From NCBI GenBank assembly GCA_963820145.1, contig CAWFZD010000024.1, positions 36,216-100,215 on the forward strand: a stretch of 64,000 nucleotides of DNA, written 5' to 3'. The DNA comes from an uncultured Alphaproteobacteria bacterium. GTDB lineage: Bacteria > Pseudomonadota > Alphaproteobacteria > Rhizobiales > Beijerinckiaceae. How positions within the stretch are numbered: position 1 is the stretch's first letter; each line of letters opens with the position of its first letter. Both the position numbers and the translations under genes were made by a program. A model generated the notes under the pieces. That model saw only the letters and a program-made list of their open reading frames with translations, was not told the DNA's origin and searched no databases. Shown here one piece after another: positions 5,544 to 29,292 of this stretch.

Positions 5544-5570
5544 TATTTCCTATAAACTGAATATGGTATT
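5544..5570. promoter_or_regulatory. Candidate Rrf2-type dyad upstream of the YeiH transporter
   Basis: TATTTCCTAT-AAACTGA-ATATGGTATT, just downstream of a TTGACA (5523-5528). Confidence 0.45.
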
Positions 5571-5758
5571 TGGCGCGAAGGAGCGCATGCCTCAAGCCGA
5601 AGGGGCGATTGCGAGCATCGTCGTGGTCATGGCCGTCTGCAGCGAGTTCGGGGTCTTGCGGAAGATCTCTCGTTCGTCTGCGGGCTCGCTTCGTCGCTCC
5701 CCTTACTGGCGAATAGCCTGCTCCGAGAGCGAGGCCGCCGCAATCGAGGGACGCTGAA

Positions 5759-7222
5759 ATGTCTGAAACATTACTGACTGCCGCCGCTGAACGACCGCGC
5801 AGTTTAACGGAAGATTGGTCGGCCGTTTTGGTGGGCCTGTCGATCTTCGTTTTGGCTCTCTTCGGGCTCACGGGCGTCGACGCGCTCGGCTGGGTCGCGA
5901 CGACGGCGGTATGGATCGATCCGGCGCAAGCGCTCGGCGCAGCCTCCAAAACCTACGCTCACCTTGGCGGCGCGGCGGCTTTGGCGGCGACTTTCCTCGC
6001 CTTGTTGATCAGTCTGAGCGCGGCTGTCTGGGCCACCGGCGGCGACGTCAAGCGTTTCGCGCTTGCGTTCACGGTCGTCTTCGTGATCGCCTATGCGAGC
6101 TGGTTTGCCGGCTCCAACGCGCATCTCGCCGCTGTCACGCCCGCGGATCAGTCGAAATTCGGCATTTCCTGGTCGCTGAAACTGACCAATGAAGGCGGAT
6201 TTATCGTCGCGCTGCTCGCGGGTCTCGTCATCGCCAATTTCTTTCCGCGCTTCGCGGACTGGCTTAAGGAAGCGATCCGCCCCGAGCTCTACATCAAGAT
6301 CGCGATCGTCATCCTCGGCGGCTTCATCGCCGCGACGGCGGCCGGCAAATTGACCCTTGCGTCCTCCGTGCTGCTGCGCGGCGTCGCCGCCATCATCGAG
6401 GCCTATCTGATCTACTGGGCCGTCGTCTATTTCGTCGCCCGCAAATATTTCGGCTTCACGCGCGAATGGGCGGCGCCGCTTGCGTCGGGCATTTCCATCT
6501 GCGGCGTCGCCGCCGCGATTTCCACCGGCGGCGCAATTCGCGCGCGGCCGCAGGTGGCGGTGCTGGTCTCTTCGCTCGTTGTCATCTTCGCCGTCGTCGA
6601 AGTGCTGCTCCTCCCGGTTCTCGCCCAGACCTTCCTGTCGCACGAACCTTTGGTCGCCGCCGCTTGGCTCGGCCTCGCGGTGAAAACCGACGGCGCCGCC
6701 GTCGCCGCCGGCGGCATTACCGAATCTTTGCTGATGGCGCAGGCGGCGAGTGAAGGCGTCAGATATGAAGCAGGCTGGATCATCGCGACCACGACGACGG
6801 TGAAGGTCTTTATCGACATCTTCATCGGCGTCTGGGCGTTCCTGCTCGCCTACATCTGGACCAATCACATCAACGCCGATAAGGGCGACAGGGCCAAGCT
6901 CTGCGAAATCTGGGAACGCTTTCCAAAGTTCATCCTCGGCTTCATCTTCACCTTCGCCGTCGTGCTGGCGCTGTCGCTCGGCGGAGGATTGACGCAGAAG
7001 CTCGCGCCGGCCATCGCCGAGGCGAACACGTTTCGCGTCATCTTCTTCATTCTGACTTTCTTCTCCATCGGCGTGCTGTCGAACTTCCGCAAGCTTTGGG
7101 AAGACGGCCTCGGCCGATTGGCGGCGGTCTATGTCGTCAGCCTGTTCGGCTTCGTGATCTGGGTCGGGCTGGCGATTTCCTGGTTGTTTTTCGCGGGCGT
7201 TCGGCCGCCGCTCGCCGGCTGA
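5759..7222 (+). CDS. YeiH/PSE family putative sulfate exporter-type membrane transporter
   Basis: 487 aa polytopic protein; SLTEDWSAV, ASGISICGVAAAI, WERFPKFILGF motifs. Confidence 0.85.
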   Translation: MSETLLTAAAERPRSLTEDWSAVLVGLSIFVLALFGLTGVDALGWVATTAVWIDPAQALGAASKTYAHLGGAAALAATFLALLISLSAAVWATGGDVKRFALAFTVVFVIAYASWFAGSNAHLAAVTPADQSKFGISWSLKLTNEGGFIVALLAGLVIANFFPRFADWLKEAIRPELYIKIAIVILGGFIAATAAGKLTLASSVLLRGVAAIIEAYLIYWAVVYFVARKYFGFTREWAAPLASGISICGVAAAISTGGAIRARPQVAVLVSSLVVIFAVVEVLLLPVLAQTFLSHEPLVAAAWLGLAVKTDGAAVAAGGITESLLMAQAASEGVRYEAGWIIATTTTVKVFIDIFIGVWAFLLAYIWTNHINADKGDRAKLCEIWERFPKFILGFIFTFAVVLALSLGGGLTQKLAPAIAEANTFRVIFFILTFFSIGVLSNFRKLWEDGLGRLAAVYVVSLFGFVIWVGLAISWLFFAGVRPPLAG

Positions 7223-7247
7223 AAGTAAGTGACAGGGATCAAAGAAA

Positions 7248-7397
7248 ATGAGCGAACCCACCATCAAGGATGAAGCCAAGCTGCGCTTTTCCGAGCCGCT
7301 GCTGCCGATCGAAAAAAAGCTGATCGCCTGGAGCCTCGGCGTCGGAATCGTCTCGCTGATCGCGCTGGCGGCGCTGAGCCGCTATTTTCCGTCGTAA
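7248..7397 (+). CDS. Small single-TM membrane protein (49 aa)
   Basis: Manual translation MSEPTIKDEAKLRFSEPLLPIEKKLIAWSLGVGIVSLIALAALSRYFPS*; 25 bp after the transporter stop. Confidence 0.7.
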   Translation: MSEPTIKDEAKLRFSEPLLPIEKKLIAWSLGVGIVSLIALAALSRYFPS

Positions 7398-7458
7398 ATG
7401 GCCCATCGCGGCTCGTGAGCGCATGCGCAAGAGGGCGCACGCGCATCGGAGCGCGCGC

Positions 7459-8406
7459 TTATATTCCAGCGCCGTCGTCGAAGGCTTCGTTGCGCGTCTT
7501 CGCCTGGGAGATGTTGCTTCCGGGCGGCACGCTGTGGGTGAGCCAGATATTGCCGCCGATGGTCGATCCGCGACCGATGGTGATGCGGCCCAGCACGGTC
7601 GCGCCGGCATAAATCACGACATCGTCTTCGACAATGGGATGCCGGGGCTGGCCCTTCACGAGCGCGCCGGCGGCGTCAGTCTCGAAACGCCTGGCGCCGA
7701 GCGTCACCGCTTGATACAGCCGCACGCGCCTGCCGATGCGCGCAGTCTCGCCGATAACGACGCCGGTGCCGTGATCGATGAAAAAACTCTCGTCGATTTC
7801 GGCGCCCGGATGAATATCGATGCCGGTCTGCGAATGCGATATTTCGCTGATGATCCGCGCCAGCATGGGCGCGCCCAAGAGGTAGAGCTGATGGGCGAGG
7901 CGGTGCCTGATCAAGGCGGTGACGCCCGGATAGCAAAAGATCACTTCATCGAGACTGCGCGCAGCGGGATCGCCGCCATAAGCGGCGCGAATGTCGGTGT
8001 CGAGCACGGCGCGCAGTCTCGGCAGGGCGCGAGCGAAGCCCTTGGCGATTTCGGACGCGCGGCGCTTCTGCGTTGCTTTGGATATGTCGCTCTCTCCGCC
8101 AAACAGCAGAAGTTCGCGACGAATTTGCTCGCCGAGCATCCGTAGCGTGCGGTCCAGCGTCACGGTCAGAAAGCCGTCGAGGCCGTCGACGCTGACATCC
8201 GCCGGACCGAAATGGCGAGGATAGAGCGTCGCGACCAGGCCCTCGACGATCTTGGCGACCGCCTCGCGCGAAGGCAGTTGCGGCAATGAGCCGTTGCGGT
8301 ATCGACTTTGCTGCGACGCTTTGCGCAAGGCGCGCAAGGCGTCGACGATCTCGCCGAGGTCGATCTTGTCCTCGCTCAGCTCCCCTGGCTCGACATGTTT
8401 GGTCAT
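7459..8406 (-). CDS. cysE: Serine O-acetyltransferase (EpsC/SrpH-type)
   Basis: GDPAARSLDEVIFCYPG, TGIDIHPGAEI, FFIDHGTGVVIGETA, RHPIVEDDVVIYAGATVLG. Confidence 0.93.
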   Translation of the reverse strand: MTKHVEPGELSEDKIDLGEIVDALRALRKASQQSRYRNGSLPQLPSREAVAKIVEGLVATLYPRHFGPADVSVDGLDGFLTVTLDRTLRMLGEQIRRELLLFGGESDISKATQKRRASEIAKGFARALPRLRAVLDTDIRAAYGGDPAARSLDEVIFCYPGVTALIRHRLAHQLYLLGAPMLARIISEISHSQTGIDIHPGAEIDESFFIDHGTGVVIGETARIGRRVRLYQAVTLGARRFETDAAGALVKGQPRHPIVEDDVVIYAGATVLGRITIGRGSTIGGNIWLTHSVPPGSNISQAKTRNEAFDDGAGI

Positions 8407-8521
8407 GGTTCATTCTCGCTGTGAATGAGACGCGCTGCGCTGAAACAGCGCGACGGTCCAAGGAATTCCGCCGCGCCCGGTCCGCCTTCAATACGCACGC
8501 GCGTTTTGAGACTCGCGTTGG

Positions 8522-9016
8522 CTACTTCAATTGCTCGGCCGCCTTGTCGATGCCGGCTTTTGCGCAGGCTTCGTCTTTTTCCCCGCCCGGCGCGCCGGAG
8601 ACGCCGACGGCGCCGATGACCACATCGCCGGCCTTGATTGGCAGCGCGCCCTGAAGCGCGATGACGCCGGCCAGCTGCGACTGCCCCGAAGCGGGGTTGT
8701 CTTTTACGCGTTGCGCGAATTCGCCTGAGGGAATGCGGAAGGTGCGCGCCGTATAGGCCTTGCGCTGGCTGTTCTCGTATGTGTGCGGCGAAGCGCCGTC
8801 GCCGCGGATGGCGATGAGCGCCTGTCCTTCAAGTCCGACGACGGTCACGGAAACGTGATGGCCTTGCTGTGTGCAGGTCTCATAGGCGGTTTGCGCGATG
8901 GCGAGGGCGACCGGCGTGGACAGCGCCTTTTGCGTCAACAATTCGGCCTGCGCCGATCCTCCCGGGATCGTGAGAAGGACAAGGGCGGCGGCGACAGAAA
9001 GCGGCTTCGGATTCAT
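8522..9016 (-). CDS. Exported GlcG/HbpS (DUF336) heme-binding family protein
   Basis: Signal peptide; VSVTVV, RKAYTA, GALPI...IGAVGVSGAPGGEKDEACA. Confidence 0.88.
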   Translation of the reverse strand: MNPKPLSVAAALVLLTIPGGSAQAELLTQKALSTPVALAIAQTAYETCTQQGHHVSVTVVGLEGQALIAIRGDGASPHTYENSQRKAYTARTFRIPSGEFAQRVKDNPASGQSQLAGVIALQGALPIKAGDVVIGAVGVSGAPGGEKDEACAKAGIDKAAEQLK

Positions 9017-9280
9017 AGTTTTTTACCCGTTGCTGGGGGGTGACTCCAGCAGGCTAACAGACTACTATTATAGTGTAAAGATATGATATAAGGTTGCCGA
9101 TCTGAATTCTGGCCGCGCAGGAATTTTGCATATCGCCGCCGCATCCTGACATAGATGTATGTTTATAAACATAAAAAGCTCGATTAAACCAGAAGCGGCG
9201 CGCTCCGGCGCGTCGCGACGCGCTCTTGACCGCCATGAGTTAATTTGCTAGTTTGCTTGTTGAATTATAGGAGTAATCAA

Positions 9281-9913
9281 ATGAATGCGCAGACGGATGC
9301 TGGTCCTGTCACCCTACACGCCAAGACGCGTCGGCCCGTGGGGGAAGAGCTTGCGGCCTCCGTCGCGGAACGGCTGCAGCGTCTGATCATTCGAAAAGGC
9401 CGTTCGTTGCAGCGTCTCTCCGAACTGAGCGGCATCGAATCCGGGGAGCTCACTCGCATCGGCCTTGGCGAGCAGCCTCCGACGATTGGCCATCTCTGGC
9501 GCATCGCCAATGCGCTGGGCGTGCCGTTTGGAAGTCTCGTGGCGTCGAAGGAACGGCCCGGCGTGCTGGTGATCCGCAAGCGGGAAGCCCAGCCGGTCAG
9601 TTCGGGCGACGGCGGCTTTCTCTCGCGCGCGCTGTACCCGTATGACTGTCAGCGGCCGGTGGAATTCTATCACGTCGTGATCGCCCCCTTGCACACCGAG
9701 CGCGCCGAGGCGCATGCGCCGGGAACCAAGGAAAATATCGTGGTCGCCAAAGGCGCGGTCGAGATCGCCGTCGGCAAAGAGCCGCCTGTTCAGCTCGACG
9801 AAGGCGACGCCATCGACTTCCTCGCCGACGTTCCGCACAGCTATCGCAATCTCGGCGTGATGCCGGCCGTCCTCTATCTGGTCATGTCCTATGAAATGCT
9901 GGCGGACGCCTGA
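9281..9913 (+). CDS. XRE-family HTH + cupin transcriptional regulator (SutR-like architecture)
   Basis: SLQRLSELSGI...PTIGHLWRIANALGVPF HTH; EAHAPGTKE and FLADVPHSYRN cupin; GGAG RBS before ATG 9281. Confidence 0.88.
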   Translation: MNAQTDAGPVTLHAKTRRPVGEELAASVAERLQRLIIRKGRSLQRLSELSGIESGELTRIGLGEQPPTIGHLWRIANALGVPFGSLVASKERPGVLVIRKREAQPVSSGDGGFLSRALYPYDCQRPVEFYHVVIAPLHTERAEAHAPGTKENIVVAKGAVEIAVGKEPPVQLDEGDAIDFLADVPHSYRNLGVMPAVLYLVMSYEMLADA

Positions 9914-9940
9914 GTGTAGAATAATAAGACGGCTAGATAT

Positions 9941-9986
9941 AGAAGTTCACCATTTTTGTAGAGGTATATAACTCTTGTAGAACAAG
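9941..9986. promoter_or_regulatory. Two overlapping candidate dyads upstream of the encapsulin gene
   Basis: AGAAGTTCAC-CATTTTT-GTAGAGGTAT (9941-9967) and AGAGGTATAT-AACTCTT-GTAGAACAAG (9960-9986) in an AT-rich spacer. Confidence 0.35.
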
Positions 9987-10178
9987 TAATATTATATATT
10001 CGTTTCATTTTTAGCTTATTCGTCGCTTGTGACCGAAGCTCATCTGATGTATTGCTGCGTGCGTCTGAAGTGCAACGCTCGCGCCGCACAGATCAAGTCC
10101 TTCCCGGGCTGTCGACGATTTAGGCGCCTAAACGCTCAGACGCGCCCGCGCTCAAAGTCGCTTCGAGGAAAATTTCGC

Positions 10179-11126
10179 ATGACCGCTGAACCTGAAATCC
10201 GCCGAACGCTGAGCGAATCGGCGGCGCGACAACTCGCCAATGCGACGAAGACGCGCCCGCAATGGTCGGGCATCACGCCGCGCTGGCTCGTGTCATTCTT
10301 GCCTTGGGTGCCGGTGGAAGCAGGCATCTACCGGCTGAACCGGGTCAAGGAATCCTCCGCGCTGACCGACGCGGACGTGCAATGCAGTCCGGCGCGCGAC
10401 CGCGACGCCGATCTGCCGGAAACCTTCGTCGACTACGAGGATGCGCCGCGCGAATATTCGATGAATGCGGTGACCACCGTTCTCGACGTGCAGACGCGCG
10501 TTTCCGATCTCTACAATCACCCCTATGACCAGATTCAGGAGCAAGTCCGACTCCTCACCGAAAAGGTGAAAGAGCGGCAGGAAGCCGAACTGATCAACAA
10601 CGCCGAATACGGCTTCCTCGCCAATGCGGCGCCTTCGATGAAGATCAAGACGCGCGGCGGCGCGCCGACGCCCGACGACCTCGACGAATTGATCGCAAAG
10701 GTGTGGAAAGAGCCGGCGTTCTTCCTCGCGCATCCGCGCGCCATTGCGGCCTTCGGTCGCGAATGCACGCGCCGCGGCGTGCCGCCGCCAACCGTGACGC
10801 TGTTCGGCTCGCCGTTTCTGACCTGGCGCGGCCTTCCGCTGGTGCCGAGCGACAAACTCTATATCGATGAGAGCGGCAAGACCAACATTCTGCTGCTGCG
10901 CACGGGCGAGAAGAAGCAGGGCGTCATCGGCCTGTTCCAGCCGGGCGTGCCGGGCGAGGTGGCGCCGAGTCTGTCTGTGCGCTTCATGGGCATCAACCGC
11001 AAGGCCATCGCCTCTTATCTCATCTCGCTTTATTGCTCCGCCGCCGTGCTCACCCATGACGCGCTCGGCGTGCTCGAGGAGGTCGATATCGGCAAGTATC
11101 ACAAATACGGCGACGCCTATGAGTGA
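10179..11126 (+). CDS. srpI: Family 2A encapsulin shell protein (SrpI / major membrane protein I type)
   Basis: AARQLANATKT.PQ..GITPRWLV..LPWVPVEAGIYRLNRV, RVSDLY..PYDQI.EQ.RL, GAPTPDDLDELI.KVWKEPAFFLAHPRAIAAFGRECTRRGVPP. Confidence 0.95.
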   Translation: MTAEPEIRRTLSESAARQLANATKTRPQWSGITPRWLVSFLPWVPVEAGIYRLNRVKESSALTDADVQCSPARDRDADLPETFVDYEDAPREYSMNAVTTVLDVQTRVSDLYNHPYDQIQEQVRLLTEKVKERQEAELINNAEYGFLANAAPSMKIKTRGGAPTPDDLDELIAKVWKEPAFFLAHPRAIAAFGRECTRRGVPPPTVTLFGSPFLTWRGLPLVPSDKLYIDESGKTNILLLRTGEKKQGVIGLFQPGVPGEVAPSLSVRFMGINRKAIASYLISLYCSAAVLTHDALGVLEEVDIGKYHKYGDAYE

Positions 11127-11197
11127 GACGACGCTGATTTAGGATTAATCGCCGGCGGCCTGTCCCGCCGGCGGCTCTTTCTCGAGGAAAAGCCAGC

Positions 11198-13409
11198 ATG
11201 TCATCCGCGCAGTTGATCCCGGCGCACGGGAATGGTCTTTCGACCGACGTTCCCTTGCAAGACGCGCTCGACCATCAGTCGTCCGCAGCGCCCGACCCGG
11301 AGATGATCGCGCGGCTCGCCAACGCGTTCTTCCTGCTGCAACCGCATCAGGCGCCGCCCGCGCCCACCGCTCCCGGGGCGCCTGTCGCCACGCCGGCGCC
11401 GCCGGAGCCGCCGGCGCCTTCGGTCGTGACGACCGCAGCGCCTCTTGCGCCGGCGCGCGCGCCGTTTGGCCCGCCCGACCTGCCGCCGACGACGATCCCG
11501 TCCGTCGTGCCGACGCCGAATGTCGCCATCCCGGCCGCGCCGACCCATGCGCAACCGGGTTCCCGGCCGCTTGGACTGCCGGACCCGCCGCAGCCCGGCG
11601 CTTCTCTTGGATCGGCGCAGCTCGGTTCTCCAAACGACATCGATTACAGCCTCATACCTCGCCTCTTCGGCGAGGCTCTCGCGCTGACGTCGACGACGCG
11701 GACGGAACCGCTCCCTCATGGCCTTGACTCGTCTGCCGCGCCCGCAGGAGTTTCGGCGCCGCAAGCGGACAATCTCTACTTTCTGCATGACCGCGCGTCG
11801 CTGAGCGCCCCGGGAACGTCGCCGGCCACTGAACGCGCAGGCTCAGAGGTTGTCGTGCGAGAAACACCGATTGCCGCGCGAGAAACTCCCGGCGCCTTCC
11901 CGGAAAATTTCGCGGTCTCCGCCCCGTCGGACTCCGATCCACACCGCATTTCGGACGTCGCCTCCTTTGCAAGCCCACCGACGCCGGCGCCGATCTTCGA
12001 AGGATATGAAAGCAGCGCGTCGCCGGGCGCCGCTGGGCCCGCCGGGCATGATGCGCTCTATTTCATAGGCCATTCGGGCGGACATGAAGGCGCCTTCGAT
12101 CCCGCGCCTGCGCAGGCGAAAGACCCCGTTCCGCAGGGCTATGAGCCGCGACTCGCGGGCGGCGCCGAGTCGGCGCGTCAGCCGTTCGATCCCTATCGCG
12201 TCAAGCGCGACTTCCCGATTCTGCAGCAGCAAGTGCATGGCAAGCCGCTGATCTGGCTCGATAACGCCGCGACGACGCAAAAGCCGCAGGCGGTGATCGA
12301 CCAACTTCGCGCATTTCTACGAATATGAGAATTCGAACATTCATCGCGCCGCACATGCGCTGGCAGCGCGCTCGACCGACGCCTATGAGGCGGCGCGCGA
12401 AAAAGTCCGCCGCTTTCTGAAGGCGCCTTCCGCGCAGGACATCATTTTCGTGCGCGGCGCGACTGAGGGCATCAATCTCGTCGCACAGGCCTGGGGCCGC
12501 CGTAATGTGCAGAAAGGCGACGAAATCGTCGTCTCCTGGCTGGAGCATCACGCAAACATCGTTCCTTGGCAGCAACTCTGCGCGCAGGCAGGCGCGAGAC
12601 TTTGCGTCGCGCCGGTCGATGATCGCGGCCAGATCATTCTCGAAGAGTACGAGAAGCTGCTCAGTCCCAAGACCCGCATCGTCGCGGTGACGCAGGTCTC
12701 GAACGCGCTCGGCACAGTGACGCCGGTGCGCGAGATCACGGCCATGGCGCATCGTCATGGAGCCTGCGTGCTGATCGATGGCGCGCAATCCGTCTCACAC
12801 ATGCCGGTCGACGTGCAATCGATCGACTGCGACTTCTTCGTCTTCTCCGGCCACAAGGTGTTCGGCCCGACCGGCATCGGCGTCGTCTACGGGAAGAAGG
12901 ACGTTCTCGAACACATGCCGCCATGGCAGGGCGGCGGCAATATGATCGCCGACGTCACTTTCGAGAAAACCGTCTATCAGGCGCCGCCGGAGCGTTTCGA
13001 GGCCGGCACCGGCAATATCGCCGATGCGGTGGGACTGGGCGCGGCGCTCGATTACGTCGAGAACATCGGCATGGAGGTCATCGCCCGCTACGAGCATGAT
13101 CTGCTCGTTTACGCGATGGAGAAAATGCGGCTCGTGCCCGGCCTCACATTTATCGGAACGGCCCCGGAGAAGGCCTCGGTGCTTTCCTTCGTGCTCCACG
13201 GTCACGACACGCAGGATGTCGGCAAGGCGCTTGATCGCGAGGGCATAGCGGTGCGCGCCGGCCATCACTGCGCCCAGCCGATTCTGCGCCGCTTCGGCCT
13301 TGAGGCGACGGTGCGGCCTTCGCTCGCGTTCTACAACACTTGCGCCGACGTCGACGCGCTCGTTGGGGCGCTGCTGAAATTGCAAAGCGGATACGGCGCA
13401 AAGAGCTGA
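11198..13409 (+). CDS. Encapsulin-cargo cysteine desulfurase (SufS-like) with ~330-aa disordered N-terminus; one frameshift ~12305
   Basis: IARLANAFF motif in a Pro/Ala-rich N-terminus; WLDNAATTQKP; shifted frame HFYEYENSNIHRAAH; SGHK (PLP Lys); RAGHHCAQP (catalytic Cys). Confidence 0.93.
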
Positions 13410-13471
13410 ATTGATAGGCTTATCAGCGGATATTGCGCTCCCGCCACGGTCAGGCGCCGAATGATAATTCG

Positions 13472-13547
13472 CTTAGTCTATAGTTTAAGTTGATTAATGT
13501 GCGGGGAACGGCTAATTTGGGACATCCTTCCAAGTTAGTAGGAAAAG
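13472..13547. promoter_or_regulatory. Two candidate dyads upstream of the first Rrf2 gene (possible autoregulation)
   Basis: CTTAGTCTAT-AGTTTAA-GTTGATTAAT (13472-13498) and GACATCCTTC-CAAGTTA-GTAGGAAAAG (13521-13547). Confidence 0.5.
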
Positions 13548-13551
13548 CCGC

Positions 13552-13999
13552 GTGCTGACCAAAAAGGGCAAATACGGCCTAAAGGCCATGGTGCATCTGG
13601 CGCAATTCCCGCCAGGACAGCCGGTTCCGGTCCTCGATGTGGCGAGCGCGCAGAGGATCCCTGAAAAAATTCCTCGACGCGATCCTGTGCGAATTGCGCA
13701 ACTCGGGCTTCGTCAACTCCAAGATGGGCAAGGGCGGCGGCTATACGCTGGCGCGCGACGCCGAAGACATCAGCGTCGGCGACATCATCCGGGCGATCGA
13801 CGGACCGCTGGCGCCGCTGCCCTGCGCAAGCAAGACGAGATATCAGCGCTGCGACGACTGCACGAACGAAGGCAATTGCCCGGTGAGACTCATCATGATC
13901 GATGCGCAACGCGCGCTCTCGAATGTGCTCGACAACTGCTCGCTGGCGCAGATGCGCCAAATGGGCGACACGAGCGTCAGGTCTTTCGTTTTACGATAA
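13552..13999 (+). CDS. Rrf2 family transcriptional regulator (frameshift ~13662)
   Basis: MLTKKGKYGLKAMVHLA...QRIP joined to KKFLDAILCELRNSGFVNSKMGKGGGYTLAR...PCASKTRYQRCDDC...C. Confidence 0.9.
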
Positions 14000-14011
14000 G
14001 CGAGTCCGTTG

Positions 14012-14389: not shown

Positions 14390-14402
14390 TGGGCTCCGCT
14401 GC

Positions 14403-20713: not shown

Positions 20714-20741
20714 CCCCGCGCTTTACATCGAGAGCACAAAC

Positions 20742-21281: not shown

Positions 21282-21298
21282 AAGCGGCGGGGCTGGTC

Positions 21299-21862
21299 AT
21301 GAAACCCAATAGGCTCGTCGCATCGCTGATGTTTGGCGCATTGATCGCCTGCGCGAGTTCCTGCGCGCAGGCGGCGCTGAAGGTCGGCGACATTGCGCCG
21401 GATTTCACCTTGCCGGCGGCGGTCGGCGGCAAGGATTTCACCTTTTCGCTCTCCGACGCGCAAAGACAGGGGCCGGTCGTCATTTACTTCTACCCCAAAT
21501 CCTTCACGCGCGGCTGCACGATCGAAGCGCATGAGTTCGCCGACCACGCCGCCGAGTTTCAAGCGGCGGGCGCCAGTCTCATCGGCATATCGAGCGACCC
21601 GATCGAAACGCAACGCGACTTCTCGACCAAGGAATGTCGCGACAAATTTCCGATCGGAGCCGACCCCAGCCTCACCGCAATCACCGCCTATAACGCAAAG
21701 CGCGAAAAGCCCGGCGCTTCGGGCGAGAAGCTCGCCGAGCGCATTTCTTACGTCGTCGCCGACGGCAGGATCGTGTACGTCTTGACGAGTTCGAATCCGA
21801 TCGAGCACGTCCAATCAACGCTCGATTTCGTCCGCAAAAGGCGCGACGAGCATAAGCAGTGA
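21299..21862 (+). CDS. Exported peroxiredoxin (BCP/PrxQ type)
   Basis: LKVGDIAPDFTL, YFYPKSFTRGCTIEA. Confidence 0.9.
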   Translation: MKPNRLVASLMFGALIACASSCAQAALKVGDIAPDFTLPAAVGGKDFTFSLSDAQRQGPVVIYFYPKSFTRGCTIEAHEFADHAAEFQAAGASLIGISSDPIETQRDFSTKECRDKFPIGADPSLTAITAYNAKREKPGASGEKLAERISYVVADGRIVYVLTSSNPIEHVQSTLDFVRKRRDEHKQ

Positions 21863-21884
21863 CATTCAACGGAGATTGTGAAAG

Positions 21885-22397
21885 ATGCGAATGAAAAGAC
21901 TTCCGCGTCGCGCTGCGGGCGCCGGCGCAGTGATTGCGCTGGCGCTCATCGCCGCCGCGAACGCGCAAAACGCGCCCGCGCCAGCCGGCGGCGGCGCCGG
22001 ACCTTCGCCGGCGAAACTCGCGCTCGAGAACCGCAAGGCGGCCTATACGCTGATCGGCAACAGCTTCCGCTGGTTCGGCGCGGTGGCGAAGGGCAATGTC
22101 GCTTACGATGACGCGGAGGCTTCAAAGCGCGCGCAGCGCATCGCTTTCCTCTCCGCGCTGCCGGGCGAAAATTTTCCCGAGGGGTCGAATTTCCCCGAGC
22201 CGGAGAGCAAGGCGAAGCCGGACGTATGGAGCAATCGCGCCGACTTCGACAAGAAGCTGCATGACTTCCAGGAGCATGCCGCGCGTCTCGCCGAAGTCGT
22301 GGCCAAGGAGAAGGGCGCGACGGAGCCCTTCAAGGCGGCGGTCGTCGCTTTGGGCCAGGACTGCAAGGGCTGCCACGACACCTACAGAGTGAAATGA
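21885..22397 (+). CDS. Cytochrome c' / c556
   Basis: Signal peptide; FPEGS, SKAKPDVW, CKGCHDTYR. Confidence 0.88.
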   Translation: MRMKRLPRRAAGAGAVIALALIAAANAQNAPAPAGGGAGPSPAKLALENRKAAYTLIGNSFRWFGAVAKGNVAYDDAEASKRAQRIAFLSALPGENFPEGSNFPEPESKAKPDVWSNRADFDKKLHDFQEHAARLAEVVAKEKGATEPFKAAVVALGQDCKGCHDTYRVK

Positions 22398-22464
22398 GTC
22401 AGCACAGGGGGACGAGGCAGGCGCGTCGTCGCTCATCTCGCTCCCGCAACAGGAGCCGGAAGCC

Positions 22465-23208
22465 GTGACGACCATCGAAACTGACCGCATCGCGCAATCC
22501 GAAGCGCCCGCCAGGACCGCGCAACGACTCGTGTGGGATTGGCCGGTGCGGTTGTTTCACTGGTCGCTCGTCGTCTCGATCCTCGGCGCCTTCGTGACCA
22601 ACCGGCTCGGCGTCAAATATTTCGCGTATCATGTCTGGTTTGGCTATGCGGTGCTCGTGCTCGTGGTCTTTCGCGCGCTTTGGGGCGTGATGGGGCCGCG
22701 CCACGCGCGCTTCGCCAATTTCGTGCGCGGCCCCAAGGCCGTGCTCGGCTATGTCAGCGCTCTCGGACGCGGGCGGCGCACGCGCTACGCCGGCCACAAT
22801 CCGCTCGGCGCGCTCATGGTCGTGACGCTGCTGGCGCTCCTGGCGCTGCAGGCGGGCTTCGGCCTCTTCGCCGATGACGAAATATTCAACGCGGGACCGC
22901 TCGCGGGCCTCGTATCGAAGAGCGCCAGCCTCAACCTCACGTCGCTGCATCGAAAGATCTTCTATTGGATCGTCGCTTCGGTCGCTTTGCATGTCCTCGC
23001 CGTCGTCTGGCATATGCGCTTCAAAGGCGAGAATCTCGCGCTCGCCATGATCACCGGAAAAAAGCCCGCGCGTCTGGTGAGGCCGGGCGAAGCGATCGCC
23101 TCGTCGCGCAGTCGTTTGGCGATAGCGCTTTTCCTCGCGATCGTAGCGGGCGTCGCCTTTGCGCTGCAATTTGTTCCAGCGGCGGAGTCAGACGGCGCCG
23201 GCTTTTGA
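22465..23208 (+). CDS. Cytochrome b/b6-domain membrane protein (hydrogenase b-type)
   Basis: VWDWPVRLFHW, HVWFGY, GHNPLGA, LH...LHVLAV, AMITGKK. Confidence 0.9.
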   Translation: MTTIETDRIAQSEAPARTAQRLVWDWPVRLFHWSLVVSILGAFVTNRLGVKYFAYHVWFGYAVLVLVVFRALWGVMGPRHARFANFVRGPKAVLGYVSALGRGRRTRYAGHNPLGALMVVTLLALLALQAGFGLFADDEIFNAGPLAGLVSKSASLNLTSLHRKIFYWIVASVALHVLAVVWHMRFKGENLALAMITGKKPARLVRPGEAIASSRSRLAIALFLAIVAGVAFALQFVPAAESDGAGF

Positions 23209-23355: not shown

Positions 23356-23382
23356 TAAATCATACTTAGTTAGTAGATATAA
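23356..23382. promoter_or_regulatory. Candidate dyad overlapping the TBDR promoter
   Basis: TAAATCATAC-TTAGTTA-GTAGATATAA, just downstream of TTGACG (23343-23348). Confidence 0.55.
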
Positions 23383-23421
23383 GATTAACAAACGCCGGCC
23401 ATGCGTTATGGGGGTTCAAAG

Positions 23422-25962
23422 ATGAGGCGTTCGACATTTGCGTTTCGCGAAAGGCTCATGCGCAGCACGCAGTTCGCATCCTTCGCCATACTGGGTACGG
23501 GCGCGCTGGCTGCGCCTTTGGCTTTGGCGCAGACCGTGCCGCCGCCGCCGGCCGCGCAACCCGCGCCTACGCCTCAACCCGCAACCGGGCCGGCGAGTGC
23601 GGAAGTAGAGGAGGTCAAGGTCACCTCGCGCCTGCGCGAGGAGAAGGCTCAGGACGTGCCGCTGCCGGTCAGCGTCGTTGGCGGCAAGACCGCCGACCGA
23701 GAGCATATCGAGCGCCTGCAGGACTTTGCGGAAAAGGTGCCGAACTTCGTGCCCTACACCACCAACCCGCGCACCTCGGCCATCGCGATCCGAGGCATCA
23801 CCGGCATCTCGGGCGGCGCCGACGGCTCCGAGTCGGCGACGGGCTTTATCGTCGACAATGTGTTCTTCACTCATGTCGGCTTCCAATGGGCCGATTATGT
23901 CGACCTGCAGTCGCTCGAGGTCGCGCGCGGCCCGCAAGGCACGCTGCTGGGCAAGAACACGACGGTCGGCGCAGTGGTGATCCACACGCAAGCGCCGTCC
24001 TTCACGCCCTCGGCGACGTTGGAGTCCTCCTTCGGCAATTACAATCGCTTCATTGAAAAGCTGAATGTGACGGGACCGATCATTCCCGACAGGGTAGCCG
24101 GCCGATTCACGTTGTTCCTCGATAAGGGCGACGGCTGGATTCATGATGCGGTCACCGGCGCCGGTCTTCTGGACAATAATCGCTGGGGCGCGCGCGGTCA
24201 GCTTCTCTTCACTTTCGACGATTTCACCGACCGCGTGATCTTCGACCGGCTTCGGTCCGACGAGTACAACAACTACGGCGCGCCCGCTTACAACAGCTTC
24301 CCGTTCTACGCCAATGGCGCGCTGGCGACCTCGTTTTCATCCAATCTCGCGAACCGCCTGCACTGGCCGCTGCTCGGCCTTGATCCCTATTCGCCGGAGC
24401 TGAGCGACCTGCGCAATCTCGACCAGCGCACGACCGGCCTCTCGAACGAATTCAACAAGCCGATCGGCGACAACGTCTTCACCTCCGTCGCAGCCTGGCG
24501 CGAGTTCACGCTGCATCCAAACAACACCGGCTCCACGACCACGGGCGGCACGGTCGGTCAGGACACCTTCATCGAATCGACCGGATTCGATACTTACGTC
24601 GATCAATATTCGTTCGAGAACCGGCTCGCCTCGCCCAAGGACGTGCCCTTGGAGTGGACCGTCGGGACCTATTTCCTGCGCGAGGTCGTCAATTCGCACG
24701 ACCGCGAAACCTACGGGCCTCAAGCAGCGCAGTGGTTCTTGAACAGTTTTGCGGCCAATCCAGCGGTGCTGAACGGCTCCACGAGCCATCAGGACGGTAT
24801 CGCCCGCACCTTCAGCGCCGCCGCCTTCGCCCAGACCTCATGGCACATCGACGACAAGTGGACGCTCACCACGGGGTTGCGCAACACTTATGAAATCCGC
24901 GAGGGTTCCGACTTCGGCTGGATCAACGGCAACACCACCGCCGCTGGCATCGGCGCCGCGAACACGGCGCAGGGCTACAGCTTCTTCGATACGGGTGGGC
25001 AGACCACGCGCACCAACTCGATTTCGGGCCTCATCAACCCGTCCTATCGATTTAGCGAGAACGTGCTCGCCTACGGCTCGGTCGCCAGGGGCGAAAAGTC
25101 CGGCGCGATCAACACGAACGCGTTGCCGCTGCTCGATAGCGCCGGCAATTTCAAAGGGTTTCAGCCGGTCATCACCAAGCCCGAAGTCTCATGGGACTAC
25201 GAGCTCGGCGTCAAGACCAACTGGTTCGACAACAAGCTCATCGTCAACGCCAATCTGTTCTGGAACGACATTTACGACTTCCAGGCGATTCTGGTGGACA
25301 CGTCGATCCTCGACGTGACCGGCGTGCCGATACGCAAAACCTATCTCGGCAACATCCCCCAGGTCCGCTCGCGCGGCTTCGAGTTCGACACACGGTGGAG
25401 CCCGCTGGAGCGGCTGTGGATCACCTTCAACGGTCAGGCGACGGATTTCCGTTACGTCAGCTATCCGCAGGCGGCGCCGCCTGCCGACTGGACCTGGCCC
25501 GCTTCCGCCAACATCAAAGGCGTCGCCGCGCCGCTCTACGTCAATCTTTCGGGTCAGCGCGTCACCTCCGGCGTCAACGGCAACGCTCCGTTCTCGCCTT
25601 ATTCCTTCAACCTCGGCGCCAATTACGAATATCCGCTTGGTCCGGTCTTGAGACCCTATGGCCTGCCGCAATCCATCTCGATGTTTGGCTACGGCAACCT
25701 GACCTGGAGATACAAGAGCCAGTTGTCCGAGCCCTATTCCCTCTATTACCTGCAACAGCCGTCCTATTCCCTGATCAACGCCGGCCTCGGCTTCAAGACC
25801 GACGACGAGAAATACAGCTTCAATCTCTGGGTCAAGAATCTCGCCGACTCCCGCTATCTCATCGCAGCGACCATCGGCAGCCCCACCGCGCCCGGAAACA
25901 TCACCTTCGGCGAAAACAATCCGCGCACCTTCGGCGCAACTCTTCGTGTGAAGCTCTACTGA
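23422..25962 (+). CDS. TonB-dependent receptor (alternative start 23401)
   Basis: EEVKVTSRLREEKAQDVP TonB box region; LEVARGPQGTLLGKNTTVGAV; WVKNLAD...PRTFGATLRVKLY. Confidence 0.93.
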   Translation: MRRSTFAFRERLMRSTQFASFAILGTGALAAPLALAQTVPPPPAAQPAPTPQPATGPASAEVEEVKVTSRLREEKAQDVPLPVSVVGGKTADREHIERLQDFAEKVPNFVPYTTNPRTSAIAIRGITGISGGADGSESATGFIVDNVFFTHVGFQWADYVDLQSLEVARGPQGTLLGKNTTVGAVVIHTQAPSFTPSATLESSFGNYNRFIEKLNVTGPIIPDRVAGRFTLFLDKGDGWIHDAVTGAGLLDNNRWGARGQLLFTFDDFTDRVIFDRLRSDEYNNYGAPAYNSFPFYANGALATSFSSNLANRLHWPLLGLDPYSPELSDLRNLDQRTTGLSNEFNKPIGDNVFTSVAAWREFTLHPNNTGSTTTGGTVGQDTFIESTGFDTYVDQYSFENRLASPKDVPLEWTVGTYFLREVVNSHDRETYGPQAAQWFLNSFAANPAVLNGSTSHQDGIARTFSAAAFAQTSWHIDDKWTLTTGLRNTYEIREGSDFGWINGNTTAAGIGAANTAQGYSFFDTGGQTTRTNSISGLINPSYRFSENVLAYGSVARGEKSGAINTNALPLLDSAGNFKGFQPVITKPEVSWDYELGVKTNWFDNKLIVNANLFWNDIYDFQAILVDTSILDVTGVPIRKTYLGNIPQVRSRGFEFDTRWSPLERLWITFNGQATDFRYVSYPQAAPPADWTWPASANIKGVAAPLYVNLSGQRVTSGVNGNAPFSPYSFNLGANYEYPLGPVLRPYGLPQSISMFGYGNLTWRYKSQLSEPYSLYYLQQPSYSLINAGLGFKTDDEKYSFNLWVKNLADSRYLIAATIGSPTAPGNITFGENNPRTFGATLRVKLY

Positions 25963-26093
25963 TCGGACGGAAGTCATTGACTTCCGTTCCCGCGCGGACC
26001 CGAGCTCCTCCCCCTCGGGTCCGCCACCCATCAAACCAGGCGCCAGGCGCGTTGCGCGTGCGTGAGTTTCGACAACAGCTAAGGGGTCCCCGA

Positions 26094-26930
26094 GTGAAAA
26101 AAGTTCTGCTACCCGTCGCAACGGCGCTCCTCGCTCTCGCAGCGACGACGGCCCTCTCCGCCGACCTCCCGTCCCGAAAGGAAGCCCCGGTGGTTCCGCC
26201 TCCGCCGCCGCCGTGGACGGGCTTCTACCTCGGCGTCAACGCCGGCTATTTCTGGACGAGCGAGAACCAGATCACCCAAAGCTATTCCGACACTTTGCCG
26301 GGCGGCTTCTTAACCCACGCCTTGGTCGGGAGTATCCCGGTTCAAGTGTCGGTCCCCAACCACGGCTTCATCGGCGGCGGCCAGGTTGGCTTCAACTATC
26401 AGTTGGAGAACCGCTTCGTCCTTGGCCTTGAAGCGGACATCCAGGGGCTGACCGGGAATGACGGGACCATCAGTGTCATCAGCGGTCCCTCGGCGACCTC
26501 GTTTTCACGCGGATTGCAGCAGATCGGCGCCATTCGCGCCCGCGTCGGCTATGTGCTGACGCCCCAACTTCTGATTTACGGCACGGGCGGCTTCGCTTAT
26601 GGCCAGGCAAATTTGACCGCCAACTATTTCGGCGCGTGGTCTTCTGCGCTGCAGGGCGTCGACAATGAGACTCGAACGCTCGGAGGATTCGCGCTCGGCG
26701 CGGGCGCAGAGTGGCTTGTCCTGCCGAACTGGGGCGTCAAGGCGGAATATCTTTATTACGACCTCGGCTCGCTCAACACGAGTGGAACGCAATTTTCTTA
26801 CAAGTCCGGAGGCGTCGCGGCGATATCCACGGCTCAATCGAGTTCGCGCTTCAACGGCAACATCGTGCGCGTCGGCCTCAATTATCACGTCAATTGGGCC
26901 GGACCGCCTGCGCTCTTCGCCAATCACTGA
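26094..26930 (+). CDS. Outer-membrane beta-barrel protein, Omp25/RopB-like
   Basis: GTG start; ADLPSRKEAP-PPPP-WTGFYLGVNAG...AEYLYYDLG...VRVGLNYH. Confidence 0.9.
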   Translation: MKKVLLPVATALLALAATTALSADLPSRKEAPVVPPPPPPWTGFYLGVNAGYFWTSENQITQSYSDTLPGGFLTHALVGSIPVQVSVPNHGFIGGGQVGFNYQLENRFVLGLEADIQGLTGNDGTISVISGPSATSFSRGLQQIGAIRARVGYVLTPQLLIYGTGGFAYGQANLTANYFGAWSSALQGVDNETRTLGGFALGAGAEWLVLPNWGVKAEYLYYDLGSLNTSGTQFSYKSGGVAAISTAQSSSRFNGNIVRVGLNYHVNWAGPPALFANH

Positions 26931-27013: not shown

Positions 27014-27040
27014 ATAATCATATTGCGTCTATGGGATTAG
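27014..27040. promoter_or_regulatory. Candidate dyad upstream of tonB-exbBD
   Basis: ATAATCATAT-TGCGTCT-ATGGGATTAG. Confidence 0.5.
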
Positions 27041-27088
27041 TGGTGTTAGTTTGCTTTTGTGACAACCATCGGGAAAGGCGCTTTAGAG

Positions 27089-27898
27089 ATGTCCTTAGCT
27101 GCTGCGCCAAGAGCGGCGTCCGCTTACGCGAAAGCCGAGCGCCTGTATCACGACAAAGCGTCTGGCGCGCAGTCGTTGCTGCATGTCGCGCCGCCCCCGC
27201 CCGACTATCCGGCCCGCACCGGCGCCATCCTTCTCTATTTCCTGCTGCTCGCGCTTTTCGTCACCGTCGGCTTCAAAAACAACGACACGCCGATTGAAGA
27301 GGAGCAGGTCGTCGAACTCGCGCCGATGCCGGTCGAAGAGCAGCCGGTCGAAGACACGCCGCCCCCGCCTGAAGCGATGGCGATTCCGGACATTCCGCCG
27401 CCTCCGGCTTTCGATCCGATCGCCCCGGTCGAAGAGGTGAAGCCGGTGGAGAAGCCCAAGATCGAGAAACCGAAGGTCGAGAAGCCCAAGCTCGAAAAAC
27501 CGAAGGCGCCGACGCGCGCACAAACGCCGAGCGCTCCCGCGCGTCCTTCCAGGCAACCCGCGCATCCGGCCGCAGCCGCAAAACCCGCGCCGCATGTCGC
27601 CGCGCCCGCCGTGCATGCGCCGCCAGCTCCTGCTGGAGCCACGATCTCTGCGGCCGCAAACGCTTACCATGCGTGTTTGCAGCGCGCCGCCGGGAGCATG
27701 GAGCCGCCGGTCGGCGGTCGCGTCACCTACCACGCCACGGTCAGCGCGACGGGAGCGGTCACCTCGTTTTCGATCACTTCTTCCAGCAATCCCTCCCTCG
27801 CATCTCTCGCTCAACGTCTCGGCGGTCGCTGCGGCTCCGTGCCGGCGCCAGGACGTCCGGGTTCGCTCTCGGGCGGAATCAGCTTCTCTGGTCCCTGA
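27089..27898 (+). CDS. tonB: TonB-like energy transducer
   Basis: Single N-terminal TM, Pro-rich linker with EKPK repeats, C-terminal domain (ATGAVTSFSITSSSNPSL); precedes exbB/exbD. Confidence 0.7.
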   Translation: MSLAAAPRAASAYAKAERLYHDKASGAQSLLHVAPPPPDYPARTGAILLYFLLLALFVTVGFKNNDTPIEEEQVVELAPMPVEEQPVEDTPPPPEAMAIPDIPPPPAFDPIAPVEEVKPVEKPKIEKPKVEKPKLEKPKAPTRAQTPSAPARPSRQPAHPAAAAKPAPHVAAPAVHAPPAPAGATISAAANAYHACLQRAAGSMEPPVGGRVTYHATVSATGAVTSFSITSSSNPSLASLAQRLGGRCGSVPAPGRPGSLSGGISFSGP

Positions 27899-27939
27899 TC
27901 ATTTTCCTTCCTCGTTCGCAAAACTGAAAGGCGCTACAC

Positions 27940-28680
27940 ATGGTTGACACGGCTACCACCGCCTCGGCGGCGCTGGCGCATACGCTGACGCCCGTCGAGC
28001 TTTTCCTGCAGGCGGACTCGATCGTCAAAACGGTGATCGTGCTGCTGATCCTCGCCGCGGCCTGGGGCCTTGGCGTCACTGCCGAGAAGTTGATTCGCCT
28101 CGGCGTGCTGCATCGCCGCGCGGCGCGCCTTTTCGACAGCATCCAGGAAGGTCTTCCCGTCTCCCACCTTGCCGAGAGCTTCGCTTCCGCGCCGAAGAAC
28201 GATCCTCTCGTGCGCGTCTACACATCCATGGTCGAGGAATACGAGCGCTCCCTCGACTTGACCCAGAGCGAATCGCAGCGCAATTCCCTCCAGGAGCGCG
28301 TGCATCGCGTCGCCCAGCTCGCCAGCTCCGCCGCGATCGAACATCTGCAGTCGCGCCTGCCTGGCCTCGCCACGATCGGCGCCGTTGCGCCTTTCGTCGG
28401 CCTCTTCGGCACGGTCTGGGGCATCATGAACTCCTTCCAGGGCATCGCCGCCTCCAACAACACCAGCCTCGCCGTCGTCGCGCCCGGCATCGCGGAAGCG
28501 CTGTTCGCGACGGCGCTCGGCCTCGTCGCGGCGATTCCCGCCGTCATTTTCTACAACCGCATCAGCGGCGACATCGGCGCCTACGCCAAGCGCCTGACGT
28601 CCTTCATCGGCGTGTTCGAGGTCGAACTGTCTCGCCAACTGTCCAAGAGAGGAGATCGCAATGGCCTTCGCGCTGCGTAA
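27940..28680 (+). CDS. exbB: MotA/TolQ/ExbB proton channel protein
   Basis: LATIGAVAPFVGLFGTVWGIMNSF...VAPGIAEALFATALGL. Confidence 0.9.
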   Translation: MVDTATTASAALAHTLTPVELFLQADSIVKTVIVLLILAAAWGLGVTAEKLIRLGVLHRRAARLFDSIQEGLPVSHLAESFASAPKNDPLVRVYTSMVEEYERSLDLTQSESQRNSLQERVHRVAQLASSAAIEHLQSRLPGLATIGAVAPFVGLFGTVWGIMNSFQGIAASNNTSLAVVAPGIAEALFATALGLVAAIPAVIFYNRISGDIGAYAKRLTSFIGVFEVELSRQLSKRGDRNGLRAA

Positions 28681-29111
28681 GAGTGATTCCGAATTCGAAC
28701 TCGGGCCCCATCGCCGACATCAACGTCACGCCGCTCGTCGATGTGATGCTCGTGCTGCTCATCGTCTTCATGGTGGCCGCGCCCCTGATGACGGCGGGCG
28801 TGCCCGTCGATCTGCCTAAGACGCAGGCGAAGCAGCTCAACGATCAGCAACCGCCGATCGTGGTCAGCGTCGACGCCGATGGAAGCTTCTTCGTCGACAA
28901 GCGCGAAGCGAGCGGGACCGAGGGACTGCTCGCGGTGCTGCAGGAGAGCAGCGAGAACAACAAGGACCGCCGCGTGCATGTGCGCGCCGACAAGGCGGTC
29001 GCCTACGGCAAGGTGGCTGAGGCCATGGGCGTCATCAACGCCGCCGGCTACGTCAAGGTGGCGCTGGTTTCCGAATCTGCTGGCGGCGGCAGGACGACGG
29101 CCCGCCGCTGA
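28661..29111 (+). CDS. exbD: ExbD/TolR protein; likely true start ATG 28661 with a frameshift in the C-run ~28707
   Basis: INVTPLVDVMLVLLIVFMVAAP, VRADKAVAYG; GAGAGGAG RBS precedes out-of-frame ATG 28661 (MAFALRKSDSEFELGP). Confidence 0.88.
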
Positions 29112-29292
29112 AAACGGACCGGCTTCGAGATTGAGCGGGTCCGAAAGTCCATGAAAATTCAGCCACGGCCGGCTCCCGCTGGCCGTGGCGGGTTTCCGAT
29201 ATGACATATCGCAAATGCAGCTTTAGAATGCCCCGCCACGAACGCCGCACGGACAGACGCAGGCGTCGGAAAAGCGGGGAGTTTCCTCATTC

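Follow-up and report, generated by a model that had tools for sequence, protein, structure and literature searches.

Most promoter-bearing intergenic regions of a 24-kb gene island in a Methylocystis metagenome-assembled genome (MAG) carry one and the same inverted repeat, a 25-bp dyad with the core TCTAY-N7-RTAGA and a 9-7-9 layout. The island lies in a stretch of 64 kb (the window; contig C24, positions 36216-100215) of a genome (G000) of 4.22 Mb in 150 contigs that is 68% complete; coordinates without a contig or locus name are those of the window. The dyad is real, conserved and enriched, and it occurs across phyla. Judged from sequence, it is most likely the site at which a distinct CymR-like Rrf2 subfamily binds, and the explanation of the whole that we consider likely is that this subfamily uses it to repress a sulfur-scavenging regulon.

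The motif was derived from relatives. Eleven Methylocystis genomes supplied the orthologous island, 80 encapsulin loci came from a wide range of taxa, and the sequences preceding each operon leader were aligned among the relatives. Palindromic expectation-maximization on 90 of their upstream regions, with the window excluded and 400 random seeds, returned TAAGTCTAT-N7-ATAGACTTA (19 bits). A second unseeded run, on 65 distant encapsulin segments alone, gave AATGTCTAT-N7-ATAGACATT (17.1 bits), that is, the same GTCTAT-N7-ATAGAC. In both independently derived matrices the information is concentrated at positions 1-9 and 17-25, with little at the 7 in between. The dyad thus has the inverted half-sites of 8-10 bp and the 7-bp centre of an Rrf2-type operator; such a 7-bp centre is known from the NsrR operator, in a paper that takes up other Rrf2 regulators with it (PMC9338935).

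Scoring against the GC-rich genome background mostly rewarded AT-rich DNA, and it was therefore replaced by a uniform background with column-permuted controls. Twelve positions in the window then reach at least 8 bits, ten of them intergenic in the island. Of the 15 positions in the 4.22-Mb genome that score 14 bits or more, four fall in the island, where 60 column-permuted matrices of the same composition found 0.1 on average (maximum 2); permuted matrices gave about 10- to 40-fold fewer island hits. The preliminary description of this DNA, which aligned ten sites by eye, had the dyad marking most promoters of the island, and it is indeed present in seven of the eight promoter-bearing intergenic regions. 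The genome scan against composition-matched permuted matrices shows it to be enriched in the island.

The second test lay outside Methylocystis and Methylosinus, at 65 encapsulin loci none of which had been used in building the first matrix. A site of at least 13 bits stands within 480 bp upstream of the encapsulin match in 25 of the 65, and 200 permuted matrices yielded 1.5 +/- 1.25 (maximum 7), about 17-fold fewer. The dyad precedes encapsulin in Methylocella, Methylocapsa, Rhodoblastus, Xanthobacter, Labrys, Rhodospirillales and many Terriglobales (Acidobacteriota), as well as in the Methylocystis rosea group (14-18 bits), whose members lack the two Rrf2 genes of the island, rrf2a and rrf2b. 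With the distant-taxa matrix the genome scan placed the sites at 13473, 23357 and 15053 at ranks 2, 11 and 14. In these genera the dyad also stands before a serine acetyltransferase/encapsulin operon and before genes for rhodanese, a YeeE/YedE-like sulfur transporter, solute-binding proteins of families 3 and 5 (SBP_bac_3/5), an FAD oxidoreductase and TonB.

These controls bear on the explanation that AT-rich promoter DNA yields the dyads by chance, or that they are mere promoter hexamers. Several window sites do score only 9-10 bits, the first alignment was made by eye on degenerate AT-rich DNA, and scoring against a GC-rich background favours any AT-rich stretch. Set against this are the losses on permutation in the island and at the distant encapsulin loci, the conservation of site positions within intergenic DNA that has otherwise diverged among relatives, and the recovery of one dyad by two independent unseeded runs, so that we regard chance as having a negligible probability.

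The genes of the 5.4-29.7 kb stretch, named from Pfam and NCBIfam matches, are the following.

5759-7222, plus strand: YeiH-like transporter
7459-8406, minus strand: serine acetyltransferase-like (SAT-like) gene, with Hexapep and SATase_N matches
8522-9016, minus strand: HbpS-like gene
9245-9913, plus strand: XRE-cupin regulator
10029-11126, plus strand: family 2A encapsulin (NF041162, 514.7 bits; cut-off 380)
11198-12328 and 12450-13409, plus strand: cysteine desulfurase in two frames (Aminotran_5), with a long N-terminal region
13552-13999, plus strand: rrf2a (Pfam Rrf2), in two frames
14009-14389, plus strand: ArsR-type regulator
14403-14936, minus strand: cupin
15172-23208, plus strand: first dyad-headed operon (DUF1549/1553, DUF1501, cupredoxin, cytochrome c'-like, dienelactone hydrolase, 179-aa protein, AhpC/TSA, cytochrome c', cytochrome b561)
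23401-26930, plus strand: second dyad-headed operon (TonB-dependent receptor, TBDR, and outer membrane protein (OMP) beta-barrel; Pfam)
27059-29111, plus strand: third dyad-headed operon (TonB-like, ExbB, ExbD; Pfam)
29293-29727, plus strand: rrf2b, intact, 144 aa (Pfam Rrf2, 117.9 bits)

The sulfur core of the island is 7459-13409, from the SAT-like gene through the HbpS-like and XRE-cupin genes to the encapsulin and the desulfurase. With a shell gene well above its model cut-off and a cysteine desulfurase gene adjoining it downstream, this is a family 2A encapsulin operon. The 27059-27898 protein matches TonB_C only weakly (E = 0.038).

All ten strings of the preliminary description occur where it placed them and match their own reverse complements at 4-8 of 10 half-site positions; nine score 8.9-21.7 bits with the relatives-only matrix in exactly the N7 register that had been proposed. 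Eight of the ten stand, one (13521) is doubtful and one (29191) is rejected. The counts below give how many Methylocystis or Methylosinus relatives score 9 bits or more at the orthologous promoter; permuted matrices gave means of 0.26-1.69.

The site first listed at 5544 (5545-5569) precedes the YeiH-like gene, begins 15 nt past a TTGACA -35-like hexamer and scores 14.3 bits, or 10.6 with the distant-taxa matrix; two of three orthologous contexts in relatives have sites of about 22 bits. At 9065-9089, between the minus-strand HbpS-like and SAT-like genes and the plus-strand XRE-cupin gene, is a weak or decayed site (7.3 bits) absent from the earlier list, and the counterpart region scores 9.3-25.1 bits in 12 of 12 relatives. 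Before the encapsulin gene two overlapping dyads stand in tandem (9941, 9942-9966, 9.4 bits; 9960, 9961-9985, 9.1 bits); the pair and its common GTAKACGTATAY centre are kept in relatives, and 11 of 20 have a site at this promoter.

The top hit of the genome (13472, 13473-13497; 21.7 bits) overlaps the -35-like TTGAYT of the rrf2a promoter. Relatives, 13 of 14 of which have a site here, read AGTCTAT-N7-NTTGACT, the right half also serving as the -35 element, and in Methylosinus GTCTAY-N7-ATAGAC lies over the -10 instead. A second listed site (13521, 13522-13546) overlaps the rrf2a ribosome-binding site and scores 10.5 bits, falling to 4.2 with the distant-taxa matrix; it is doubtful because close relatives have only a single site at this promoter.

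Two dyads 40 bp apart precede the DUF1549/DUF1553-DUF1501 operon (15052, 15053-15077, 8.9 bits, or 13.7 with the distant-taxa matrix; 15092, 15093-15117, 10.4 bits). Both positions are kept in relatives, with a third beside the divergent cupin gene, and every one of the 12 relatives reaches at least 12 bits at this promoter. The third corresponds in the window to 14945-14969 (9.3 bits), by the start of the minus-strand cupin gene and likewise absent from the earlier list; the equivalent block in relatives reads ATCATAY-N7-RTATAT and reaches 14.4 bits in one locus (L001).

The site before the TBDR gene (23356, 23357-23381; 19.4 bits) lies 12 nt past a conserved CTTGAC, and the dyad therefore covers the -10 region. 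Nine of 10 relatives have a site there and keep the layout CTTGAC-N11/12-ATAATCCTAC-N7-GTAGATATA. The TonB-like/ExbB/ExbD operon is headed by a 15.7-bit site (27014, 27015-27039), and AATCCTAT-TGCGTCT-ATAGGATT is kept at this promoter in 10 of 10 relatives, all with a site. At several promoters the sites overlap a conserved CTTGAC or begin 6-16 nt past it, a position that would fit repression by occlusion. A scan of 5400-15200 with the Escherichia coli-type sigma-70 consensus found no promoter, so the -35 assignments are those of the aligned, conserved CTTGAC only.

At rrf2b, 29191-29217 was put forward as a further instance and is rejected: it scores -0.3 bits, and 0 of 12 relatives have a dyad of at least 9 bits before the gene. 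What is conserved before rrf2b in relatives is a TTCCNATATGAYA block, which in the window contains the perfect palindrome CGATAT-GAC-ATATCG (CGATATGACATATCG; 29197-29211). This palindrome may be a separate operator for rrf2b.

The proteins that would read the dyad form a small group of paralogs. rrf2b (PF02082, 117.9 bits, cut-off 30; TIGR00738, 104.6, cut-off 73.3), the C-terminal frame of rrf2a (94.7 and 77.5 bits) and a third, core paralog (131.4 and 115.3 bits) all belong to the Rrf2 family, and both island proteins have a four-Cys loop, C-X8-C-X2-C-X5-C. The core paralog, 56-62% identical to rrf2b, was found in all Methylocystis genomes searched except one (G021). A divergent cysK-type gene stands about 1 kb away from it in each of the three genomes inspected. 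In M. rosea that gene matches TIGR01139 at 441 bits; a PALP gene is placed likewise in the two further genomes. The order cysK, a gene of about 230-280 aa without family and the core paralog is kept in three Methylocystis genomes, at the following places.

L113, 7856-10324: cysK, middle gene, core paralog
L114, 5721-8306: cysK, middle gene, core paralog
L115, 6216-8661: cysK, middle gene, core paralog

Autoregulation is common in the Rrf2 family, and own-gene dyads are present for several members of this subfamily though not for rrf2b. The core paralog has a dyad 117-195 bp upstream of its own start. Taking it together with its alphaproteobacterial orthologues, 6 of 12 loci have an own-gene dyad of 9.3-20.9 bits when sites up to about 200 bp upstream are counted. 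Orthologues in Terriglobia contain no Cys at all, and 5 of 5 have a dyad of 12.7-18.7 bits 22-28 bp before the aligned start. None of six Rrf2 genes of other types from these genomes has a dyad upstream. The neighbours of the Terriglobia genes (TerC, PP2C and proteins without family) are uninformative.

Co-occurrence was surveyed in twenty genomes behind the encapsulin loci, ten with and ten without the dyad at encapsulin. The Rrf2 subfamily is present in nine of the ten dyad-positive and one of the ten dyad-negative genomes, a result that is supportive but not a formal test, the dyad-negative genomes being mostly Nitrobacteraceae. Among the dyad-negative genomes, Granulicella sp. S156 has only a different Rrf2, with three Cys and SufR/IscR-like.

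The subfamily has the helix signature P-x-K-F-L-[DE]-x-I-L-x-E-L-[RK]-N. Residues K37, F38, L39, I42, L43, E45 and N48 of the recognition helix and G57, G60, G61 and Y62 of the wing are invariant among the three paralogs and the acidobacterial proteins, so one operator specificity is to be expected for all members. A split of the sites into CC/GG (perhaps for rrf2b) and TC/GA (perhaps for rrf2a or the core paralog) was tried and dropped, the genus-wide pattern count being confounded in that it only tracks presence of the island; with invariant recognition helices no paralog-specific operator can be claimed. In public records the name of these proteins goes no further than "Rrf2 family transcriptional regulator"; for the acidobacterial cluster a small number of automated entries read "cysteine metabolism repressor". 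The rrf2b cluster also has a member in Methylocystis sp. MJC1.

It is the 9-7-9 layout, the dyad before subfamily genes in two phyla and the co-occurrence that make Rrf2 the candidate binder. The preliminary description had proposed a regulon of the two island paralogs. A candidate Rrf2 operator common to the encapsulin, DUF1549/1553-DUF1501, TBDR, TonB-like and transporter promoters holds good; its restriction to those two proteins does not. The encapsulin dyad in genomes without either island paralog (the M. rosea group, Terriglobales), together with the core and acidobacterial orthologues, indicates a regulon older and wider than the island.

The dyad might instead be bound by the XRE-cupin (9245-9913) or the ArsR-type (14009-14389) protein, the Rrf2 genes being only targets. 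An XRE-cupin gene lies directly upstream of encapsulin here, and in a published neighbourhood table an HTH_3 gene is near 22.5% of family 2A encapsulin loci, at a median distance of 1 (eLife 2021). Yet the dyad stands at encapsulins with neither gene within 6 kb (e.g. L003-L008 and Terriglobales loci) and before Rrf2 genes far from any encapsulin locus. Conversely, two loci with an adjoining XRE-cupin gene (L034, L039) have no dyad, both in genomes without the Rrf2 subfamily, and an ArsR gene occurs in only 5 related loci. We think either protein a very improbable binder, and the CymR-like Rrf2 subfamily is retained as the candidate.

In Bacillus subtilis and Staphylococcus aureus, CymR is the master repressor for the genes of cysteine metabolism. 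A CymR box of TAAWNCN2ANTWNAN3ATMGGAATTW, 27 bp with a 10-7-10 layout, is said to have been given by Even et al. in 2006; its right half would resemble ATAGGATTTA of the TonB-like promoter. CymR of S. aureus (3t8r, E = 6e-16) and of B. subtilis (2y75, E = 2e-14) are the nearest solved relatives by sequence. Among the specific NCBIfam models, that of CymR ranks first for rrf2b and the core paralog and third for the truncated rrf2a fragment, sulfur- and cysteine-related targets are shared, and cysK is close to the core paralog. The acidobacterial orthologues, being Cys-less, are also CymR-like, as B. subtilis CymR binds no Fe-S (iron-sulfur) cluster (PMC9338935); CymR acts in complex with CysK, with O-acetylserine as signal (PMC2940859). 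The differences are as clear. Scores with NF047409 are 70.7 (rrf2b), 51.2 (rrf2a fragment) and 82.7 bits (core) against 195, so that the proteins are not equivalogs, and identity is 34-40% at most, in the DNA-binding half only. The alphaproteobacterial members have a four-Cys loop that CymR lacks, the phyla are others (Alphaproteobacteria, Acidobacteriota), and the regulon takes in encapsulin, TBDR/TonB and the DUF1501 operon, with no cysD or cysK site found.

IscR, of the same family, shares the 9-7-9 layout and a Cys-rich loop after the winged helix. Its type-2 operator in E. coli and other Proteobacteria has the consensus A-N3-CC-N2-A-N7-T-A-N-GG-N3-T, and sites like AAATCCTAT-N7-ATAGGATTT have CC/GG and the outer A/T at the positions of that consensus. 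The IscR type-1 site, which the preliminary description took as the analogue, is less apt than the CymR box or the IscR type-2 layout, with CC...GG at equivalent positions. The three paralogs are nevertheless far from IscR, with 46-70 bits against cut-offs of 207.55 and 275 (TIGR02010 and NF008110), C-X8-C-X2-C-X5-C against C-X5-C-X5-C-X2-H, a recognition helix of K-F-L-D-A against S-Y-L-E-Q, and no isc or suf genes as neighbours.

RirA is the iron-responsive Rrf2 repressor of Rhizobiales and acts on the IRO box TGA-N9-TCA. It resembles the present system in being an alphaproteobacterial Rrf2 repressor with a Cys loop and TonB-dependent uptake targets, but the scores are 34.5-51.7 bits against 193 (NF008886), the operator differs in sequence and spacing, and the targets here are mostly sulfur genes. 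With the NsrR model the scores are 38.9-56.9 bits against 182 (NF008240), and the SUF-regulator models are also far below their cut-offs for the three paralogs. Since the paralogs pass only the Rrf2 superfamily models, they fall outside both CymR and IscR; to judge by these likenesses, the system may work like CymR or like an IscR type-2 site while belonging to neither.

Desulfurase (SrpI-type) encapsulins store elemental sulfur, and in Synechococcus elongatus the older literature names CysR as their regulator. Family 2A (SrpI-type) operons consist, as here, of serine acetyltransferase, encapsulin, cysteine desulfurase and often rhodanese, and two papers on them name no regulator outside cyanobacteria (PMC8049743; PMC10836720). 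The family 2A neighbourhood table lists HTH_3 and LysR regulators and not Rrf2 (eLife 2021). In the literature searched, Rrf2, encapsulin and cysteine desulfurase were not found together, and Rrf2 with encapsulin only in an iron-detoxification review. The desulfurase encapsulin operon is up about 10-fold on sulfur starvation in Acinetobacter baumannii (PMC10836720) and is also induced by it in S. elongatus (PMC8049743). Antioxidant defences are reportedly among the functions that sulfur starvation induces in Pseudomonas aeruginosa (PMC12581299); the AhpC/TSA gene of the island fits this induction.

The CymR-like subfamily would then act as follows. In Methylocystis there are up to three paralogs, the core copy about 1 kb from cysK and the island's rrf2a and rrf2b. 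An Rrf2 dimer on sites overlapping the -35 or -10 would shut the operon off; in sulfur or cysteine shortage binding would be lost and the sulfur-scavenging set switched on. This set would comprise the SAT-like gene, encapsulin with cysteine desulfurase, the YeiH-like transporter, the DUF1549/1553-DUF1501 redox/hydrolase operon, and the TBDR with its own TonB-like/ExbBD. We infer Rrf2 binding, repression, the sulfur signal and any assignment of paralogs to sites, as also any role of the four cysteines or of CysK. A sulfur or cysteine signal is suggested by CymR as the nearest solved relative, by cysK near the core paralog, by targets that are mostly sulfur genes and by the response of the encapsulin operon to sulfur starvation.

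Several observations weigh against this explanation. In the genome itself, rrf2a reads in two frames with a shift at a six-A run (13665-13670), its Pfam Rrf2 match covering residues 2-47 in one frame and then profile positions 37-129 in the following one; rrf2b has no upstream dyad, either in the window or in the 12 relatives; and the search for the core paralog in this genome, which is 68% complete, did not find it. The subfamily occurs in one dyad-negative genome and was not found in one dyad-positive 2.4-Mb MAG, and the co-occurrence counts overstate independence because the surveyed genomes are related to one another. When core sulfate-assimilation genes were scanned, no dyad was found before cysD; in M. 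rosea none stands directly before cysK, and the sole site for a cysK-like gene, of 12.7 bits, is 2.5 kb away. The dyad regulon thus does not amount to the full cysteine regulon. Outside the island, strong genome hits lie by genes without coherent function (for the best of them DPBB, alpha/beta hydrolase, phosphoesterase, DUF4147/MOFRL and several without family). Finally, the TonB/TBDR genes, the cytochromes, the cupredoxin and the four-Cys loop also fit an iron, Fe-S or redox signal.

This last point leads to the alternative that the same Rrf2 subfamily binds the dyad but responds to iron, an Fe-S cluster or redox through its Cys loop, in the manner of RirA, IscR or RsrR, and not to sulfur or cysteine. 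The loop that contains its four conserved Cys is the one in which IscR, NsrR and RirA carry their clusters, the island has an HbpS-like gene besides the TBDR, TonB-like/ExbBD, cytochromes and cupredoxin, and the lack of a dyad before cysD agrees with it. The Cys spacing, however, is unlike that of IscR, NsrR and RirA, whose NCBIfam models are far below cut-off, and the Terriglobia orthologues have the same recognition helix and an own-gene dyad with no Cys, so that a cluster is not needed for the operator system. Against it are also the SAT, rhodanese, YeeE-like and solute-binding targets of other genera, cysK near the core paralog and the response of the encapsulin operon to sulfur starvation (PMC10836720). 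An iron or redox signal therefore appears unlikely, if by no means far-fetched, and a sulfur or cysteine signal is preferred.

A bolder extension of the sulfur explanation is offered only tentatively. The three paralogs, with identical DNA-reading residues and different sensor loops, could compete or heterodimerise on one set of operators and so integrate several signals, cysteine or O-acetylserine via CysK and sulfane sulfur or Fe-S via C-X8-C-X2-C-X5-C. The Cys-less acidobacterial form would represent the ancestral CymR-like mode, and in at least two phyla the subfamily could supply the sulfur-starvation regulator that is missing for desulfurase encapsulins.

An operator with a candidate regulator would be new for the family 2A desulfurase encapsulin operon. 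A concrete operator and a candidate family, conserved from Alphaproteobacteria to Acidobacteriota, make encapsulin regulation directly testable. They would define a regulon for sulfur acquisition in methanotrophs and in peat or soil bacteria, link uncharacterised genes (the DUF1549/1553-DUF1501 operon, the dedicated TBDR with TonB-like/ExbBD, the YeiH-like transporter) to sulfur supply, and carry CymR-like control beyond Firmicutes.

Some features of the gene map deserve mention. The island has the serine acetyltransferase typical of desulfurase encapsulin operons, to judge from the codon pattern and the Hexapep and SATase_N matches of 7459-8406; it is on the strand opposite to encapsulin, behind the HbpS-like gene. 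A plus-strand open reading frame (ORF) at 7423-8145 that it overlaps is probably spurious, the minus-strand frame having the better codon-position GC pattern. The two cysteine desulfurase frames are 1252 nt apart (junction 12328-12450) and in frame in relatives, and an upstream TonB-dependent receptor is split over two ORFs (317-3032). The apparent frameshifts in this receptor, the desulfurase and rrf2a may be assembly indel errors or true pseudogenes.

Beyond the island, the second-best dyad of the genome (C103:586-610, locus L101; 21.2 bits) is a near-perfect palindrome 6 nt past CTTGAC, and no ORF downstream of it had a convincing codon bias in third-position GC (GC3) or a family match. A tblastn search revealed no paralogous TonB-like genes behind look-alike sites on contigs C36 and C39. 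A dispersed repeat resembling a miniature inverted-repeat transposable element (about 115 nt, terminal inverted repeats CTAGAGC...GCTCTAG) is present in at least 33 copies in the genome, for example at C10:46679 and, just outside the window, at C24:101826. The inner part, AAAGTCTATCAACTTTTTCGGATTT, reaches 10-13 bits with the dyad matrix and was filtered out; the repeat is probably unrelated to the regulon. Within the window but outside the island, a dyad at 56192-56216 scores 14.0 bits (11.0 with the matrix from distant taxa). It stands some 120 bp upstream of an OMP beta-barrel paralog on the minus strand (about 55163-56071), and may mark a further member of the regulon or be a chance match.

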